Shown piece by piece: positions 7,234 through 12,609 of a stretch of 64,000 nucleotides of DNA. The notes below the pieces were generated by a model. That model was not told the DNA's origin, did no database searches, and saw nothing but the letters and a program-made list of their open reading frames with translations. The DNA comes from Candidatus Saccharimonadales bacterium. GTDB lineage: Bacteria > Patescibacteriota > Saccharimonadia > Saccharimonadales > EFPC-124. Made by a program: the position numbers and the translations under genes. Positions within the stretch are counted from its first letter, which is position 1. The number at the start of each line of letters is the position of its first letter. The stretch is taken from positions 220,805 through 284,804 of the forward strand of contig JBOHNX010000002.1 in assembly GCA_050730875.1 (NCBI GenBank), in the 5' to 3' direction.

Positions 7234-8262
7234 TTACATCGAAAGACTCGGGATAACCTCCAGCGAATAGGGGTCGGCTGGCTCGCTGCGTTTTGCCTGG
7301 TAATAGGCGAGGGTAGCGATCATGGCGGCGTTGTCGGTACAGAGCGAAGGAGCGGCATAGTTGATTTCGATCGGCAGCCGCTCTTTTAGTTGGCGGCGCA
7401 GCTCCTGGTTAGCGGCAACGCCACCGGCGATAACTACCGAAGCAGGGGAGTAGTCCTGGTAGGCCAGCATGGTTTTGTCGACTAACGTTTCGATGGCGAT
7501 GTGCTGGAAGCTCGCGGCAATATTATTGCGTTGTGAGGCCGTGAGAAGCGCTGCAAGCTGGGTGGAAGGAAAGTCGTGTGATTTGCCACATAATGCTTGT
7601 GCTTGGCGCAGCACGGCCGTTTTAAGGCCCGAAAAGCTAAAGTCGTACTTGCCGGGCATTTTAGCTTTGGGGAATTTGATGGCGTGCGGATCGCCTTGTT
7701 CGGCGAATTTGGCAATTGACGGACCGCCCGGGTAGGGGAGTCCGATAACTTTTGCCACCTTGTCGAAGGCTTCGCCGACAGCATCATCCTGGGTCTGGCC
7801 CAGCAGTGTGTAGTCGCCGTGGTCACGGAAGAGTACGAGCTGACTGTGGCCACCGCTCACGATAAGGGCCAGCATAGGGAATTTAGGCTGCGGGTCAATT
7901 AAGAAATTGGCATACACATGTCCTTCGACGTGATGAACAGGGTAGAGTGGCTTACTTTTAACAATCGCCAGCGTGCGGGCGGTGAGCGCACCAATCAACA
8001 AAGAGCCAATCAGGCCAGGCGCGTACGTGACGCCAATACCGTCGATGTCATCCCAGTTAACGTTCGCTTCTTTTAGCGCTTCATCGACGACGGGCAACAT
8101 AACTTCAATGTGGCTGCGGGCCGCAACTTCAGGCACCACACCGCCAAATGCTTTGTGGATGTCGATTTGGCTTTGCACGACATTGCTCAGCAATTCGTGC
8201 CCATCGCGGACGACGGCTGCAGAAGTTTCGTCACAACTTGTTTCAATCCCCAAGATAATCAT
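7234..8262 (-). CDS. tsaD: tRNA N6-adenosine threonylcarbamoyltransferase TsaD
   Basis: 342 aa. ILGIETSCDETSAAVV N-terminus and HHVEGH metal-binding motif of the Kae1/TsaD family. Confidence 0.9.
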   Translation of the reverse strand: MIILGIETSCDETSAAVVRDGHELLSNVVQSQIDIHKAFGGVVPEVAARSHIEVMLPVVDEALKEANVNWDDIDGIGVTYAPGLIGSLLIGALTARTLAIVKSKPLYPVHHVEGHVYANFLIDPQPKFPMLALIVSGGHSQLVLFRDHGDYTLLGQTQDDAVGEAFDKVAKVIGLPYPGGPSIAKFAEQGDPHAIKFPKAKMPGKYDFSFSGLKTAVLRQAQALCGKSHDFPSTQLAALLTASQRNNIAASFQHIAIETLVDKTMLAYQDYSPASVVIAGGVAANQELRRQLKERLPIEINYAAPSLCTDNAAMIATLAYYQAKRSEPADPYSLEVIPSLSM

Positions 8263-8319: not shown

Positions 8320-9609
8320 ATGAATGTAAAGACGATAGTCAAAAAGATGCTACCCAGCGGCTTACGTTATCGAGTAGCGAACTTCTACCATTTGTTGGTG
8401 GCAATAGTCGCAAATATTCGATACGGATTCCCGGCACGTGGCGCCCAGGTGATTATGGTGACCGGTACAAATGGCAAAACAACCACGGCCGCTTTGATTA
8501 CCCGGATGTTGCAGCACGCTGGGCATAAGGTCGGTGCTTTAACGACTGCTTTTTACGCTTTTGGTGATCATTTAGAGCCTAACACTAGCAACCGCACAGT
8601 CGATGACATCTTTCGTGTTCAGGCGCTTTTAGCTCGAATGAAGAAGGCGGGTTGCGAATATTTGGTGATAGAGGTTACCTCGCAGGCGCTTGTGCAACAT
8701 AGACTTTGGGGTGTTCCGGTAGATGTGGCCGTTATGACCAACCTCAGCCAGGATCATCTTGATTACCACAAAACAATGGATGCCTATGCAGCTGCCAAAG
8801 GCAAGCTATTTGCGCGAAGACCGCGTTTCACGATCCTGAACCGTGATGATACTTGGTTTGATTATTTTGCAGCCTTTCCAGTCTCGAACCGCATGCTTAG
8901 TTACGGTACTTCGCCGGAGGCAGAGTGTCGAATTGACGATGTTCATCTGCACAAAAACGGCAGTGACGTAAAGCTAAAAGTTGATGACGAAAGCGATGTA
9001 GAGTTCACTACGAAGCTACCTGGTAAATTTAATGTATACAATGCCGCGGCCGCAATTGCAGTCGGCTACGTACTGCAGCTTGACCTTTCGCTCGTAGCCA
9101 AGGGTGTTGAAGCGCTCGAGCACGTGCCAGGCCGTCTGGAACGAGTCAATGCCGGCCAAACGTTCGACGTGATTGTTGACTACGCGCACACGCCGGATGC
9201 GTTGCAAAATCTGTTGGAAACGCTCAAGCATCTCACTGAAGATCAACTTATTTTAGTGTTCGGAGCTACTGGCGACCGCGACAAGACCAAGCGGCCCGAA
9301 ATGGGGGAAATAGCAGTAAAATTCGCTGACCACATTGTTTTGACCGATGAAGAACCATATGATGAAGATCCCGATGCAATCCGTGCCGATATCCGCAAGG
9401 GCATCGAAAAAGCCGGTGGCGCAGACAAAACTACTGAGATTGCCGACCGCCGCGAAGCAGTCGCCAAAGCGCTCAAAATGGCACGCAAAGGCGACACAGT
9501 GGCAATTACGGGTATGGGACACGAGCAATTCCGCGTTATCAAGGGTGAACGCCTCCCCTGGAACGATACGCAAGTAGTACAAGAACTCCTGACAAACAAG
9601 CGTTCATAA
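8320..9609 (+). CDS. murE: Mur ligase, MurE-type (UDP-MurNAc-L-Ala-D-Glu : diamino acid ligase), lacking the usual N-terminal domain
   Basis: 429 aa. P-loop VTGTNGKTTT. TNLSQDHLDYH...AAAKGKLF (carbamyl-Lys region). VDYAHTPDAL. FGATGDRDKTKRPEMG. TDEEPYDEDP occupies the place of the DNPR motif. Confidence 0.8.
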   Translation: MNVKTIVKKMLPSGLRYRVANFYHLLVAIVANIRYGFPARGAQVIMVTGTNGKTTTAALITRMLQHAGHKVGALTTAFYAFGDHLEPNTSNRTVDDIFRVQALLARMKKAGCEYLVIEVTSQALVQHRLWGVPVDVAVMTNLSQDHLDYHKTMDAYAAAKGKLFARRPRFTILNRDDTWFDYFAAFPVSNRMLSYGTSPEAECRIDDVHLHKNGSDVKLKVDDESDVEFTTKLPGKFNVYNAAAAIAVGYVLQLDLSLVAKGVEALEHVPGRLERVNAGQTFDVIVDYAHTPDALQNLLETLKHLTEDQLILVFGATGDRDKTKRPEMGEIAVKFADHIVLTDEEPYDEDPDAIRADIRKGIEKAGGADKTTEIADRREAVAKALKMARKGDTVAITGMGHEQFRVIKGERLPWNDTQVVQELLTNKRS

Positions 9610-9663
9610 GCGTAAACTGGACGCTGATGATAAAATAAATGAAGTTAGGTATTTTGGTGGTGT

Positions 9664-10923
9664 ATGCACGAAGCTGAACATCCGCAGAGAGGCAGACGAG
9701 GAGGAGTGAAAACAGCAATTTCGGCATGGTTGGCAGCAGGGAGTCATGGTTTGCCTACACGCCACTTGCAGATAATTGTAGTCACCGGGAGCGATGGCAG
9801 CTCTTCGACTGTAGCTTTTTTGGCCGAAATTCTAAAAGCTGCGGGCGAGCGCGTCGGGGTTATTACGCAAAATTATGTCGAAATAGCTGGCGAGCGTGCC
9901 TCTGGCAGTGACCAAGCCGGCATTCTAGATGAACCATACAAATTACAGGCACTCCTGGCGCAAATGCACAAAAGCAAATGCCGGTATGTGCTTATTGAAA
10001 TGCCAGCAAGTATTCCGGCGCATAAGTTTGTTGGTGTTCCTTTGACCATGGTTGTAGTGCGTCGCTGCGGTGATTCGCACGTTGACCAAGCGTCGGTTAT
10101 GTCGCGTAAAACAGCGGTCGGCCGTATTTTGTCGCGCCAACCGCGCTATATTGTACTGAACCACGACGATGCTTGTTATGACGACCTGGTCAAATATCAA
10201 GCGGAAGAATTGCGGATGACCTACGGGGCGCATCAGCAAGCAGAGTGCCGTATTCGTAATGTTCATCTGCACCCCAAAGGCAGCTCGATAGAGCTCATCA
10301 TAGATCATCAAACTGGAGTAAGTTTAACAACAGAGCTCCCAGGCAAACAGGCAATTTACAGCGTGGTAGCGGCCGCTGCCGCAGCGTATATGCTGCATGT
10401 TTCGATCGAACACATCGAATCTGGCATTGCGAATATTAGGCAAATACCGTTCCAGTTTGAGCAGCTTAGCATTGAACGGCCGTTTAACCTGGTGCTCGAT
10501 AGTTCGAGCACGCCCGAAGGAATTGCCGAGATTCTCGAGACGCTAAAGCACTTCGCACATAATCGTGTGATTGTCGTTTTGGGTGGGCAGCTTGGACAGT
10601 CGGCCCATTGGCGGCCGGTCATTGGCGAGATTGCTGCTAAGTATGCTGATAGAATCGTCCTAACAGACGGCGACTACGCACCGACCGAAAGCGCTCTAAC
10701 TGTGCGCGAGGGCTTTCGGCAGGGCGTTTTTGCCGCATCTGGCGAAGCAATGCTTGATGAAGTCCCTGACCGCATGGCCGCCTTCGAAAAAGCACTCAGT
10801 ATTGCTCGTAGAGGAGACGCAATTGTTATTTGTTCTGCTGCGCCGCGTCCGTACCGGCAGGTCGGTACCGAACGTGTGGCTTGGGATGATAAAGGGAAGA
10901 TCGAGGAACTCCTAGGAGGGTAA
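9664..10923 (+). CDS. Full-length MurE paralog with degenerate catalytic motifs (probable pseudo-enzyme)
   Basis: 419 aa and collinear with the upstream MurE. The P-loop reads VTGSDGSSST (Lys lost). DHLDYH is absent. LDSSSTPEGI replaces VDYAHTPDAL. LGGQLGQSAHWRPVIG replaces GATGDRDKTKRPEMG. Confidence 0.65.
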   Translation: MHEAEHPQRGRRGGVKTAISAWLAAGSHGLPTRHLQIIVVTGSDGSSSTVAFLAEILKAAGERVGVITQNYVEIAGERASGSDQAGILDEPYKLQALLAQMHKSKCRYVLIEMPASIPAHKFVGVPLTMVVVRRCGDSHVDQASVMSRKTAVGRILSRQPRYIVLNHDDACYDDLVKYQAEELRMTYGAHQQAECRIRNVHLHPKGSSIELIIDHQTGVSLTTELPGKQAIYSVVAAAAAAYMLHVSIEHIESGIANIRQIPFQFEQLSIERPFNLVLDSSSTPEGIAEILETLKHFAHNRVIVVLGGQLGQSAHWRPVIGEIAAKYADRIVLTDGDYAPTESALTVREGFRQGVFAASGEAMLDEVPDRMAAFEKALSIARRGDAIVICSAAPRPYRQVGTERVAWDDKGKIEELLGG

Positions 10924-10929
10924 TTCTTT

Positions 10930-11649
10930 ATGGACGATGATAAACCGGCAAGCGAGCACTGGCGTCGCCGCTTAAAGCAGCTCGACACCATGGCGGCCAC
11001 GGCAACAGCTGCCGTGCGCTATGGCTTGCCGGCGTATGGCGCGCGGATTATCGTAACCACTGGAGAAACTGGCATTTTAACGCCAATGACCCGAGCGATC
11101 TTAAAAACTGCCGGGCATACGGTGGCCACGCTTCACGCGCCGACTAAAGGGCACAAGTGGGAGGTGCAAAAAGAGCTCGCCGCCGTGCGCCGAAAACTGT
11201 GTGACATTGTGATTATCTCGGTCCCGGCCCACGCGACTGGCCTAGGAGCGATGTGGGGCTTGCCGATTGCTGCCGTGGCCGTATGCGAAGCACCAGCTGC
11301 ATCGTTACAGGCCGAACAGTTTAGGACAGTTACAAAGTTGCTCACACGGGCCCGAGAGCTGGCGGTACTCGATATAAACGGCGCTGACTTTGTGGCGCTG
11401 GAGCGTTCGTGCAAGGCGGATGTGCAAACATATGGCGATGCCGACTTGGCAGATACTCGACTGGTTGTGCACACGCACGGTACCCATAGCACTACCTGCG
11501 TGGTCGAAACACACGATGAACAGGTAGAATTCCATATTCCACGGCCCGAACCCGAGGCGTTGGTTGCGGCTTTAGCAGCTATTACGCTGGCGCGTTTTTA
11601 CGATGTAGACGACGAACTCATCCAAAGCGGTCTATTTGCCGCGAAGTAG
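10930..11649 (+). CDS. Truncated MurE paralog (N-terminal and central-domain equivalent only), P-loop degenerate
   Basis: 239 aa. RYGLPAYGARIIVTTGETGILTPMTRAILKTAGHTV aligns with RYGFPARGAQVIMVTGTNGKTTTAALITRMLQHAGHKV of MurE. The C-terminal domain is missing. Confidence 0.55.
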   Translation: MDDDKPASEHWRRRLKQLDTMAATATAAVRYGLPAYGARIIVTTGETGILTPMTRAILKTAGHTVATLHAPTKGHKWEVQKELAAVRRKLCDIVIISVPAHATGLGAMWGLPIAAVAVCEAPAASLQAEQFRTVTKLLTRARELAVLDINGADFVALERSCKADVQTYGDADLADTRLVVHTHGTHSTTCVVETHDEQVEFHIPRPEPEALVAALAAITLARFYDVDDELIQSGLFAAK

Positions 11650-12609
11650 TTTTTTGGCTTTGTAGGCACCACGGTACAGATGATAAGTGACGCTTACGGG
11701 CATTTCCCAAGTGCCAAGGTATGCCTTGTAGCCGCCGCCAAACGATCGCTTAAAGCGCGAAAAGCCGGCCCAAGGGTGATTAGGCTGGTCGGGTGGGGCA
11801 ATGCCGTAAAAATCGAACAATTTTTGGCCGTTTGTTTTAGCTTCGAAGATCATCGTGCTGACCAGTGGAGTGCCAGGATGAAGCTTACGTGCTTCGGTGC
11901 GTGATCCGGCATGCGCATAGTAGCGAGTGTTCGGGCTATCGAAGACCAGTGCGCTGGCAACCGGCATGCCATCGTGCTCGCCAATGTACATGGTCATGGC
12001 GGCGCGCGGCATCAAACTACTGGCCATTTTCTCGTAGTAGCTGTCTGGGTGCGGTTGCATCCCTGTATTTTTAGCGACTTCGTGGATCATGTCGAGAAAT
12101 ACATGCAAATCTCCAACATTGCGGGTAGAGCGGAAGGTGAGCCCTTTGTTAATGGCGGTGCGGTGCAGGTTGCGGTTGGTTGCCGACATTTCGGTCATCA
12201 GCTCGTCTTCGCTGCGGGTGAGATCCTTCACCCAAGTGAGGCGAGGTTGAATATCTTTAAGCGCTGGCTTGAGCCCATGCGCGCGCAGTTTTTCTTCGGC
12301 GATGGGAACGACGGGTTCCATGCGCACAAACAGAGCCGACTGTGCTTTGGCAAGCTGCTTGAGCGCAGCCAAAGCCTGGTTGAGTGCTTCTGCATTTTTA
12401 GCATAGGGCCCGTAAGGACAATAGAGGCGAGTACCAGTCCGACTTTTCTCGAGAATAGCTAGACACTGCCAGCCATCACCGCTGGCGTAAAAGATTGGTT
12501 TGCCAAGCGCTGACTGAAATGCCGCCCAGTGGCTACTCTGTAAAAAATGTCCACCGGCTGCAAAAAGCGCTACGTCCCATTGTTCGTCTGGAATACCTTG
12601 TTGCCACAT
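11632..12609 (-). CDS. FemAB-family peptidoglycan interpeptide-bridge aminoacyltransferase (FemX-like)
   Basis: 325 aa. Blocks QSSHWAAF, LYCPYGP, IQPRLTWVKDL, YYAHAGS and LFDFYGI...HPWAGFSRFKRSFGG are typical of FemA/B/X. The 3' end overlaps the convergent Mur paralog by 18 nt. Confidence 0.72.
   Translation of the reverse strand: MWQQGIPDEQWDVALFAAGGHFLQSSHWAAFQSALGKPIFYASGDGWQCLAILEKSRTGTRLYCPYGPYAKNAEALNQALAALKQLAKAQSALFVRMEPVVPIAEEKLRAHGLKPALKDIQPRLTWVKDLTRSEDELMTEMSATNRNLHRTAINKGLTFRSTRNVGDLHVFLDMIHEVAKNTGMQPHPDSYYEKMASSLMPRAAMTMYIGEHDGMPVASALVFDSPNTRYYAHAGSRTEARKLHPGTPLVSTMIFEAKTNGQKLFDFYGIAPPDQPNHPWAGFSRFKRSFGGGYKAYLGTWEMPVSVTYHLYRGAYKAKKLLRGK

Follow-up and report, generated by a model that had tools for sequence, protein, structure and literature searches.

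A MurE gene array in Saccharimonadales with a conserved family of MurE paralogs lacking the ligase catalytic residues and a truncated third paralog

Three consecutive Mur-ligase-type genes, called here g1, g2 and g3, are carried by a 64-kb stretch of DNA (contig JBOHNX010000002.1; the whole stretch is referred to below as the window) from a metagenome-assembled genome (MAG) of a Candidatus Saccharimonadales bacterium, one belonging to the Candidate Phyla Radiation (CPR), from soil or rhizosphere. The first gene, g1, which we label E1, is predicted to be a bona fide working MurE in which all of the motifs are present. The other two are predicted non-ligase members of the Mur family which are kept by selection. 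The product of g2 belongs to a family, PS, which has lost the ligase residues and acquired a different set of invariant residues. That of g3 belongs to a small family, T3, and, judged from its sequence, is a truncated central-domain derivative of a third MurE paralog lineage, E2, rather than a copy of g1 or g2. These evolutionary conclusions, and those concerning annotation, are solid; a role of PS and T3 as partners or regulators of MurE is plausible. In what follows, proteins are designated P#### and loci L###.

Few bacterial enzymes have been studied as well as the Mur ligases, which are major targets of antibiotics and are treated as independent, monomeric and fully catalytic proteins. PS has lost its ligase residues, yet it is conserved about as strongly as MurE and is always found beside an active-type MurE gene. 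This occurs in genome-reduced epibiotic CPR bacteria, in which superfluous genes are normally purged. Full-text literature searches found no account of dead Mur-ligase paralogs in bacteria, nor of MurE paralogs in Saccharibacteria, Patescibacteria or CPR.

The three genes are read in the same direction between a divergent tsaD gene and a convergent gene for a FemAB-family peptidyltransferase (PF02388, 122 bits), which form the conserved left- and right-hand boundaries of the locus (Table 1). An earlier note, made from the letters of the window, had described them as consecutive paralogs on one strand. Their open reading frames (ORFs) are exactly as it gave them, the motifs and coordinates quoted for all three are correct on re-reading the sequence, and the products match each other in BLASTP comparisons: g1 and g2 with an E value of 1e-87 (33% identity over 401 aa), g1 and g3 with 9e-14 (25% over 253 aa) and g2 and g3 with 9e-10 (26%). 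No further Mur ligase gene is present in the 64 kb, and scanning the array for promoters and terminators gave no signal above background. An independent Logan assembly (L003) is 100% identical to the window over 20.7 kb and so provides no within-species polymorphism. In the NCBI annotation g2 is a "Mur ligase family protein" and g3 "hypothetical protein ACREGJ_04340".

The profile matches separate the three proteins clearly. With g1, the curated cut-offs of both MurE models are exceeded (NF001126, 421.6 bits for a cut-off of 373; TIGR01085, 420 bits for 257.3), as are those of the Pfam central and C-terminal domains (PF08245, 178.1 bits for 24; PF02875, 118.2 bits for 28.4). The g2 product passes both Pfam cut-offs (70.4 and 56.5 bits) and fails both MurE cut-offs (168.7 bits with NF001126 and 157.5 with TIGR01085). 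For g3 the PF08245 match reaches only 18.2 bits, PF02875 and the two MurE models give no hit, and the ORF ends where the central domain would pass into the C-terminal one. Its homology to the Mur ligases is nonetheless secure from the BLASTP match with g1 and from the E2 profile and Foldseek matches given below. The observations that g1 alone retains the catalytic motifs and that g3 has no C-terminal domain are thus borne out.

Besides the P-loop and the four other motifs listed in Table 1, g1 carries EVTS, NRDD, PGR and GMGHE. It includes K160, at the position of the lysine which is carbamylated in solved MurE structures, the Mg site residues D145 and H146 and the acidic residues E344 and E402 of the amino-acid-binding site. 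Its best match in the PDB is the Thermotoga maritima MurE 4BUB (E value 1.6e-73), aligned from 4BUB residue 88, and its MurE profile matches begin at profile position 88 or 70. In Staphylococcus aureus MurE the uridine-binding domain 1 corresponds to residues 1–98 (PMC3829189). As these alignments start only near residue 88 of canonical MurE, g1 lacks this domain. A single helix takes its place, and tsaD abuts the start of the gene, leaving no room for it. In a test for all three MurE domains, g2 and g3 likewise proved to start at about profile position 70–88, without domain 1. The same is true of 41 other CPR MurEs (P0080–P0120; 381–437 aa, the 381-aa one being perhaps partial), so that the loss appears to be CPR-wide and not particular to this locus. 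With the domain missing, recognition of the nucleotide substrate in these bacteria calls for an explanation; no paper on CPR MurE without the uridine-binding domain was found in the literature.

A search of 5.8 billion proteins recovered at least 78 orthologous clusters of the PS family. They lie at 45–55% identity, are restricted to Saccharimonadales and form a discrete group: the next matches are ordinary CPR MurEs at 36–42% identity. The alignment includes 42 invariant columns. At the former P-loop the family pattern is G-x-D-G-x-x-x-T instead of the G-T-N-G-K-T-T-T of MurE, and the column of the Walker lysine is occupied by A, S, G or T in all 78 sequences and by K or R in none. This careful alignment revealed no hidden Walker lysine, an oversight which the earlier note had named as a possible objection to its own reading. 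Also lost are the Walker threonine, the DH pair and the arginine of PGR. The carbamyl-lysine and the DH Mg site correspond in g2 to G153 and S138, in columns which vary across the family (R/Q/K/N and others, and D/S/N/A and others). The histidine column of DYAH is filled by V, S, I or T with a few Y, A, L and F, no histidine being among the residues listed, and the aspartate columns of GDRD are mostly A, G or P. At the level of sequence the PS family thus has the features of a pseudoenzyme: clear homology to an enzyme and absence of the catalytic residues throughout the family.

The motifs of g2 had been called "substituted" and the copy itself "degenerate". The catalytic residues are indeed gone, but these terms understate the change, since PS has acquired an invariant set of its own. 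In 14 columns a residue at least 90% conserved in CPR MurE is replaced by a different residue at least 90% conserved in PS. Most of these switched columns lie within the former active-site motifs (the main changes are given in Table 1), which indicates that the PS cleft has been remodelled rather than eroded. R133, R134 and D137, all invariant in PS, replace the MurE-invariant T-N-x-x-Q of TNL(S/T)QDH; W316 replaces the invariant lysine of GDRDKxKRP; G336 (77 of 78) stands at the first aspartate position of the DNPR/DNPA amino-acid-binding motif and R395 (74 of 78) at the glutamate of GxGHE. In S. aureus MurE, the incoming amino acid is held by its side-chain amine through D406 and E460 (PMC3829189). 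Their equivalents in PS being G336 and R395, the amino-acid pocket is charge-reversed.

An AlphaFold2 (AF2) model of g2 is of high confidence (pLDDT 91.1, pTM 0.90) and resembles closed, ligand-bound MurE (Foldseek TMq 0.82–0.86). It might be argued that g2 has remained active as a Mur ligase by means of a non-canonical nucleotide site, its catalytic residues having been overlooked or relocated: the overall fold persists, as does the closed arrangement of the two domains, with the highest TMq, 0.86, to a product-bound MurE; NRDD, the aspartate of (V/L)D-x-x-x-(T/S)P and several arginine and aspartate residues of the C-terminal domain are retained; and contacts to phosphates would in principle be possible for R133 and R134. 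We regard this as very unlikely. The Walker lysine and both threonines, the DH pair, the carbamyl-lysine, the DYAH histidine and GDRD have been lost together and family-wide, both acidic residues that bind the amino acid (roles from PMC3829189) are replaced, and the g2 scores with the MurE models are given as under half of the curated cut-offs. From the sequence changes we infer that PS is a two-domain Mur-ligase fold unable to carry out ATP-dependent acyl-phosphate ligation.

These properties have consequences for annotation. PS proteins currently carry the names "MurE" (many of them at JGI), "Mur ligase family protein" and, for the orthologs P0019, P0048 and P0069 at NCBI, "cyanophycin synthetase". 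With the cyanophycin synthetase models g2 scores 68–77 bits for cut-offs of 850–877 (TIGR02068 and NF010623). Both enzyme names lie below the curated cut-offs and are therefore over-annotations of PS orthologs. A typical Saccharimonadales PS gene with a convergent FemAB gene is also found on a 4.5-kb contig labelled as a Magnetospirillaceae MAG (L008, DATLJN010000082.1); the contig was probably binned there by mistake.

PS is under strong purifying selection. The ratio of nonsynonymous to synonymous substitution rates (dN/dS; NG86 and YN00 estimates, respectively) is 0.048 and 0.069 for the PS genes of the pair L004/L017, compared to 0.029 and 0.025 for their E1 genes, and 0.067 and 0.082 for PS of the pair L022/L027, compared to 0.042 and 0.046 for E1; dS is 1.1–2.0 in these pairs, and the ratios should therefore be taken as approximate. 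The mean identity of PS proteins over 55 genome pairs is 53.5% and that of E1 proteins 63.2%, the two being correlated (r = 0.86). An active-type MurE gene occurs within 1.4 kb of PS in all 20 informative loci. In 16 of them the order is E1, PS, convergent FemAB, while the other four (L001, L007, L030 and L033) carry a full-length E2 gene 3′ of PS. In L001 there is no E1 gene between tsaD and PS, nor was one called upstream of PS in L030; in L007 and L033 the upstream flanks are too short to show this. Four other saccharibacterial loci (L011, L013, L024 and L025) include MurE with a convergent FemAB gene and no PS, which marks the PS duplication as clade-specific. In two related genomes (L004 and L017), two small genes of no recognized family, encoding 202 aa on the minus strand and 190 aa on the plus strand, are inserted between E1 and PS and break their tight adjacency.

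The view that both degenerate copies are neutrally decaying pseudogenes has in its favour the loss of the canonical catalytic motifs and the truncation of g3. It is nevertheless extremely improbable. The dN/dS values of the PS pairs, and those of a T3 pair described below (0.05–0.13 overall), refute neutral decay; the PS orthologs, at least 78 in number, are intact and not frameshifted, with their 42 invariant columns; synteny is kept across genomes whose synonymous sites are saturated; and the AF2 models of both proteins are of high confidence. The proposal of the earlier note that the copies are retained and not decaying therefore holds.

PS and E1 have not diverged from their ancestor in the same way. 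The ancestral CPR MurE carries a loop with the pattern EIAGER..ND.N.T, of which PS retains EIAGER, lost in E1, and E1 retains in part N-x-x-N-x-T, where PS has GSDQA. This division may represent complementary degeneration. Because the two have split the ancestral loop features, g2 is closer to distant CPR MurEs (36–37% identity) than to its neighbour g1 (32%). E1 proteins often have a glutamine in place of the otherwise invariant histidine of EVTSH.

The relatives of g3 were more difficult to identify. A word-indexed search with g3 alone returned only g3 itself, and a search with the T3 alignment returned five proteins. An exhaustive HMMER scan found P0122 (248 aa, 38% identity), P0125 (228 aa, 25%) and P0123, a full-length ligase of 436 aa (37%). 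Two further matches, P0124 and P0126, were spurious, these being repetitive proteins matched in many short stretches, and a scan of metagenome contigs with the combined T3 and E2 alignment gave no confirmed locus. P0123 belongs to the E2 group together with P0130, the E2 gene of L001 and its ortholog in L007. Members of this group keep GTNGKTTT, DHLDYH, AAAK, DHAHT and GDRD. A hidden Markov model (HMM) of E2 gives 134 bits with g3, 139 with P0122 and 45 with P0125, compared to 15–74 bits for the HMMs of E1, PS and CPR MurE (31–33 bits in the case of g3). At the level of identity, g3 is 35–38% identical to the E2 lineage and 24–27% to g1 and g2. E2 and T3 also have in common the pattern VQTYGxxDLADTR, which appears in g3 as VQTYGDADLADTR and is absent from g1 and g2. 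It is the HMM scores, the pairwise identities and this pattern which place T3 with E2. A neighbour-joining tree of the central domain put T3 beside PS; this was rejected as long-branch attraction, the same three lines of evidence placing P0121, P0122 and P0125 with E2. The idea of an array of tandem copies thus stands in so far as the three genes are paralogous, but g3 derives from a distinct lineage which is catalytically intact elsewhere.

The g3 product has no counterpart of the carbamyl-lysine or of the DH Mg site, and it shares with P0122 and P0125 both a degenerate P-loop and the stop at the boundary of the central and C-terminal domains. The neighbourhoods agree: in L014, P0122 lies directly 3′ of a PS C-terminus 60% identical to g2, and in L015 P0125 directly precedes a convergent FemAB gene whose product is 65% identical to that of the window. 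The whole array recurs in another organism (L035) as tsaD on the minus strand, E1 (66% identical to g1), PS (52% to g2), T3 (24% to g3) and FemAB on the minus strand (63%). The triplet, whose conservation the earlier note had suggested be checked, thus occurs in a second organism; g3 is absent from most PS-bearing loci. A 286-aa gene occupying this slot in L002 is unrelated to g3. The simplest history would be an ancestral E1–PS–E2 array with reciprocal fates of the two ligase genes: E2 would have been lost in most lineages and truncated to T3 in those of the window, L014 and L035, whereas E1 would have been lost in the L001-type lineages. One ligase gene would thus be kept and the other truncated here, and the reverse would hold for sister genomes, in which E1 would be gone and E2 retained.

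The E2 proteins differ from E1 in the motifs of the amino-acid pocket, with T(E/D)LENY for TDEEPY and GLGNQ for GMGHE, which suggests a different amino acid at position 3 or an altered specificity. Two other degenerate Mur-ligase proteins were noted. P0127, encoded on a 946-bp contig (L029), is a lone central domain of 218 aa whose P-loop, VTGKGSTVV, is degenerate. The HMMs of PS and CPR MurE give it higher scores than that of E2; it was rejected as a T3 ortholog and is probably an independent truncation. P0129, represented on 12 contigs, is a 353-aa paralog located directly 5′ of a 430-aa MurE in a Saccharibacteria-like genome (L031). In this protein GRTGKTTT is retained, DHLDYH is missing and the C-terminal domain is shortened. 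Its occurrence in another lineage indicates that pairs of a dead paralog and a MurE may have arisen more than once.

As regards substitution rates in T3, the synonymous sites of the deep pairs are saturated and their dN/dS unusable; the close pair L035/L015 was used instead. These near-identical T3 orthologs differ by 17 synonymous and 5 nonsynonymous codon changes, giving a dN/dS of 0.08 (NG86) or 0.13 (YN00) and a binomial P of 2e-7 against neutrality, while the flanking FemAB genes of the same pair give 0.056–0.068. Between g3 and its L014 relative, identity at codon positions 1, 2 and 3 is 54, 60 and 31.5%, with a dN of 0.65 and a saturated dS, which supports purifying selection on the g3 of the window indirectly. 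The AF2 model of g3 is confident (pLDDT 85.8, pTM 0.84) and resembles MurE central domains (TMq 0.77–0.79), although the alignment used for modelling is dominated by Mur ligases, which favours a confident MurE-like fold. Nor does the composition of the gene (57% GC, 16% Ala, GC3 within the range of the genome) point to a foreign source. At least as a member of the T3 family, g3 is not decaying.

Several observations weigh against extending this conclusion to g3 in the present genome, and might suggest that it is a non-functional remnant of E2, made redundant by E1 and with its frame open only transiently, g2 alone being functional. The T3 family is rare, being known from three lineages, and evolves rapidly, about 3–4 times faster by identity (24–38% between positional orthologs where their neighbours share 52–66%). 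Its invariant residues are mostly hydrophobic or glycine, with no invariant polar residue. The direct dN/dS comes from the P0125 lineage, a sister lineage, and not from the g3 of the window. We nonetheless consider such a remnant unlikely. The 239-codon frame is intact, for which the probability by chance is about 1e-5 (hand arithmetic from 3 stops in 64 codons); it is preceded by a strong Shine-Dalgarno sequence at the right spacing; and the same domain-boundary stop is found in three lineages which have diverged beyond synonymous saturation. The substitutions relative to L014, the low dN/dS in the sister lineage and the confident fold also argue against it. No remnant of the C-terminal domain is present and FemAB abuts g3 (the 3′ ends share 18 bp in the window and 4 bp in L035 and L015), so that the truncation is old and clean.

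As to what PS does, the explanation which we favour overall, with moderate confidence, is a MurE array in which PS serves as an accessory subunit and g3 is a truncated E2. PS would be co-expressed with the adjacent active-type ligase and act as a non-hydrolysing, "prozyme"-like subunit of MurE. Its arginine-rich cleft, lined by the new invariant set D44, S82, R133, R134, D137, W316, G336 and R395, would bind a ligand bearing phosphate or carboxylate groups, most plausibly UDP-MurNAc-peptide; in this state PS would regulate MurE, or hand on its substrate or product, a possible recipient of the product being the neighbouring FemAB-type enzyme. T3 would be a structural add-on to the PS–MurE assembly. 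Modulation of MurE or transfer of its product by PS in this specific manner is offered tentatively, as a possibility that we would not yet call probable. A bolder form, in which the third position of the stem peptide is built by a hetero-oligomeric Mur ligase made up of a short MurE and an obligatory dead paralog that binds UDP-MurNAc-peptide or a host-derived muropeptide and gates or hands it over, with a half-length subunit added in some lineages, is more doubtful again. If it were correct, this would be the first "prozyme"-type pseudoenzyme in the cytoplasmic Mur pathway. More generally, a dead copy which regulates MurE or presents its substrate would constitute a new layer of control in peptidoglycan precursor synthesis and a new example of pseudoenzyme evolution.

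There are points which count against an accessory role, in addition to the approximate nature of the PS and E1 ratios. Mur ligases are usually monomers, so that a MurE heteromer would be unusual; the adjacency of PS and MurE may merely reflect their origin by tandem duplication; and the new invariant cleft residues could equally mean a new catalysis unrelated to MurE. This last idea leads to the main competing explanation, that PS has been neofunctionalized and has its own role as an enzyme or receptor built on the Mur-ligase fold, for example ATP-independent chemistry or the binding of another metabolite, exercised through the new D/S/R/R/D/W/R cleft, its position beside murE being a relic of duplication. 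It would account for the concentration of the 14 switched-invariant positions in the old active site, for the reversed charge of the amino-acid pocket (R395 standing in place of Glu and G336 in place of Asp) and for a dN/dS of 0.05–0.08, since in pure scaffolds the old active-site residues are usually free to drift. We consider it rather unlikely, however, because a MurE-type gene stays beside PS in every informative locus, including those in which E2 replaces E1 as the partner, because no known cofactor or nucleotide motif can be recognized among the new residues and because the Pfam and NCBIfam matches are to Mur-ligase-type enzyme families only.

The accessory-subunit reading can be compared with a number of known systems. 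By fold and homology g2 and g3 belong to the Mur ligase superfamily, yet they fail the tests for MurE, MurT and cyanophycin synthetase. Relative to canonical MurE (4BUB, 2WTZ/2XJA, 4C12 and 1E8C), g1 agrees in its central and C-terminal domains and has the full set of catalytic motifs, and g2 and g3 show the same fold (TMq 0.77–0.86). The differences are the missing domain 1 of all three, the absence from g2 and g3 of the Walker lysine, the carbamyl-lysine and the amino-acid-binding acidic residues and, for g3, the absence of domain 3 as well. By analogy, the nearest conceptual precedent for PS and T3 is the plant protein PAP11, which has the MurE fold and serves the plastid RNA polymerase as a structural subunit (PMC11561172). 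PAP11 is among the PDB matches of g2 and g3 and keeps the MurE fold for a role other than ligation within a larger complex. In contrast to PS and T3, which are bacterial and lie beside an active MurE gene in a peptidoglycan neighbourhood, it is eukaryotic, with all three domains and additional C-terminal folds which make contacts, and the sequence relation is at the family level only.

MurT, of the MurT/GatD lipid II amidotransferase, is also a Mur-family protein without a canonical domain 1 and functions only in a hetero-complex. It retains its ATP-binding residues and pairs with GatD. With the MurT model NF045635 (cut-off 800) g2 scores 15.5 bits and g1 42.4 bits, and no GatD-like or glutaminase gene is present in the neighbourhood of g1–g3. 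Dead paralogs which act through an active relative are known as the trypanosomatid AdoMetDC prozyme and as the degenerate LytM activators EnvC and NlpD. These resemble PS in being selected and catalytically dead; the protein families are unrelated and the PS–MurE interaction is only proposed, so that the likeness is one of mechanism. Finally, the MurE–MurF fusion or complex 8F5D, which is among the structural matches, illustrates that Mur ligases can form physical assemblies. There, however, both halves are active in consecutive steps, whereas here separate genes encode dead MurE paralogs.

Table 1. Genes, motifs and switched residues of the array, with related loci. Coordinates are those of the window unless a locus is given.
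Feature	Position	Strand	Remarks
g1 (E1)	8320-9609	+	429 aa; short-form MurE with intact catalytic motifs
g2 (PS)	9664-10923	+	419 aa; two-domain MurE paralog without ligase catalytic residues
g3 (T3)	10930-11649	+	239 aa; lone Mur-ligase central domain without P-loop or C-terminal domain
tsaD	7234-8262	-	divergent
FemAB-family peptidyltransferase	11632-12609	-	convergent
g1 Walker P-loop GTNGKTTT	8464-8487	+	
g1 DHLDYH	8752-8769	+	
g1 AAAKGKLF	8788-8811	+	
g1 DYAHTPDAL	9178-9204	+	
g1 GDRDKTKRP	9271-9297	+	
EIAGER-loop region, g1	8554-8598		residues 79-93
EIAGER-loop region, g2	9880-9918		residues 73-85
g2 former P-loop GSDGSSST	9787-9810	+	
g2 RRCGD	10060-10074	+	includes R133, R134 and D137
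g2 WRP	10609-10617	+	includes W316
g2 TDGDY	10663-10677	+	includes G336
g2 RPYRQ	10846-10860	+	includes R395
Shine-Dalgarno AGGAGG	10914-10919	+	10 nt 5′ of the g3 ATG, within the 3′ end of g2
g3 former P-loop GETGILT	11062-11082	+	
g3 signature VQTYGDADLADTR	11422-11460	+	in E2 (P0123, L001, P0130) and T3 relatives
Switched column	g1 N51 to g2 D44		Walker loop
Switched column	g1 N88 to g2 S82		loop after the P-loop helix
Switched column	g1 T140 to g2 R133		TNL motif
Switched column	g1 N141 to g2 R134		TNL motif
Switched column	g1 Q144 to g2 D137		before the DH pair
Switched column	g1 K324 to g2 W316		GDRDKxKRP
Switched column	g1 E344 to g2 G336		first position of the DNPR/DNPA motif
Switched column	g1 E402 to g2 R395		Glu of GxGHE
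E2	L001:7235-8527		3′ of PS
E2	L007:1545-2918		3′ of PS
E2	L030:6189-7478		3′ of PS
E2	L033:949-2259		3′ of PS
Small genes between E1 and PS	L004:4697-5942		two genes, one on each strand
P0127	L029:170-826		lone central domain
P0129	L031:6001-7062		degenerate paralog
MurE beside P0129	L031:7062-8354		430 aa
FemAB-family genes	L001:10130-12148		two copies
FemAB-family genes	L030:8669-11701		three copies

The start of g2 is ambiguous. The longest ORF begins at an ATG (9664; 419 aa), whereas NCBI places the start at a GTG (9706; 405 aa), just 5′ of which a GAGGAGG sequence is found with essentially no spacer. Residues 1–9 of the long form have a pLDDT below 50. The number of FemAB-family genes also varies, with a single copy in the window, two in L001 and three in L030, which suggests a variable interpeptide-bridge chemistry within the clade.

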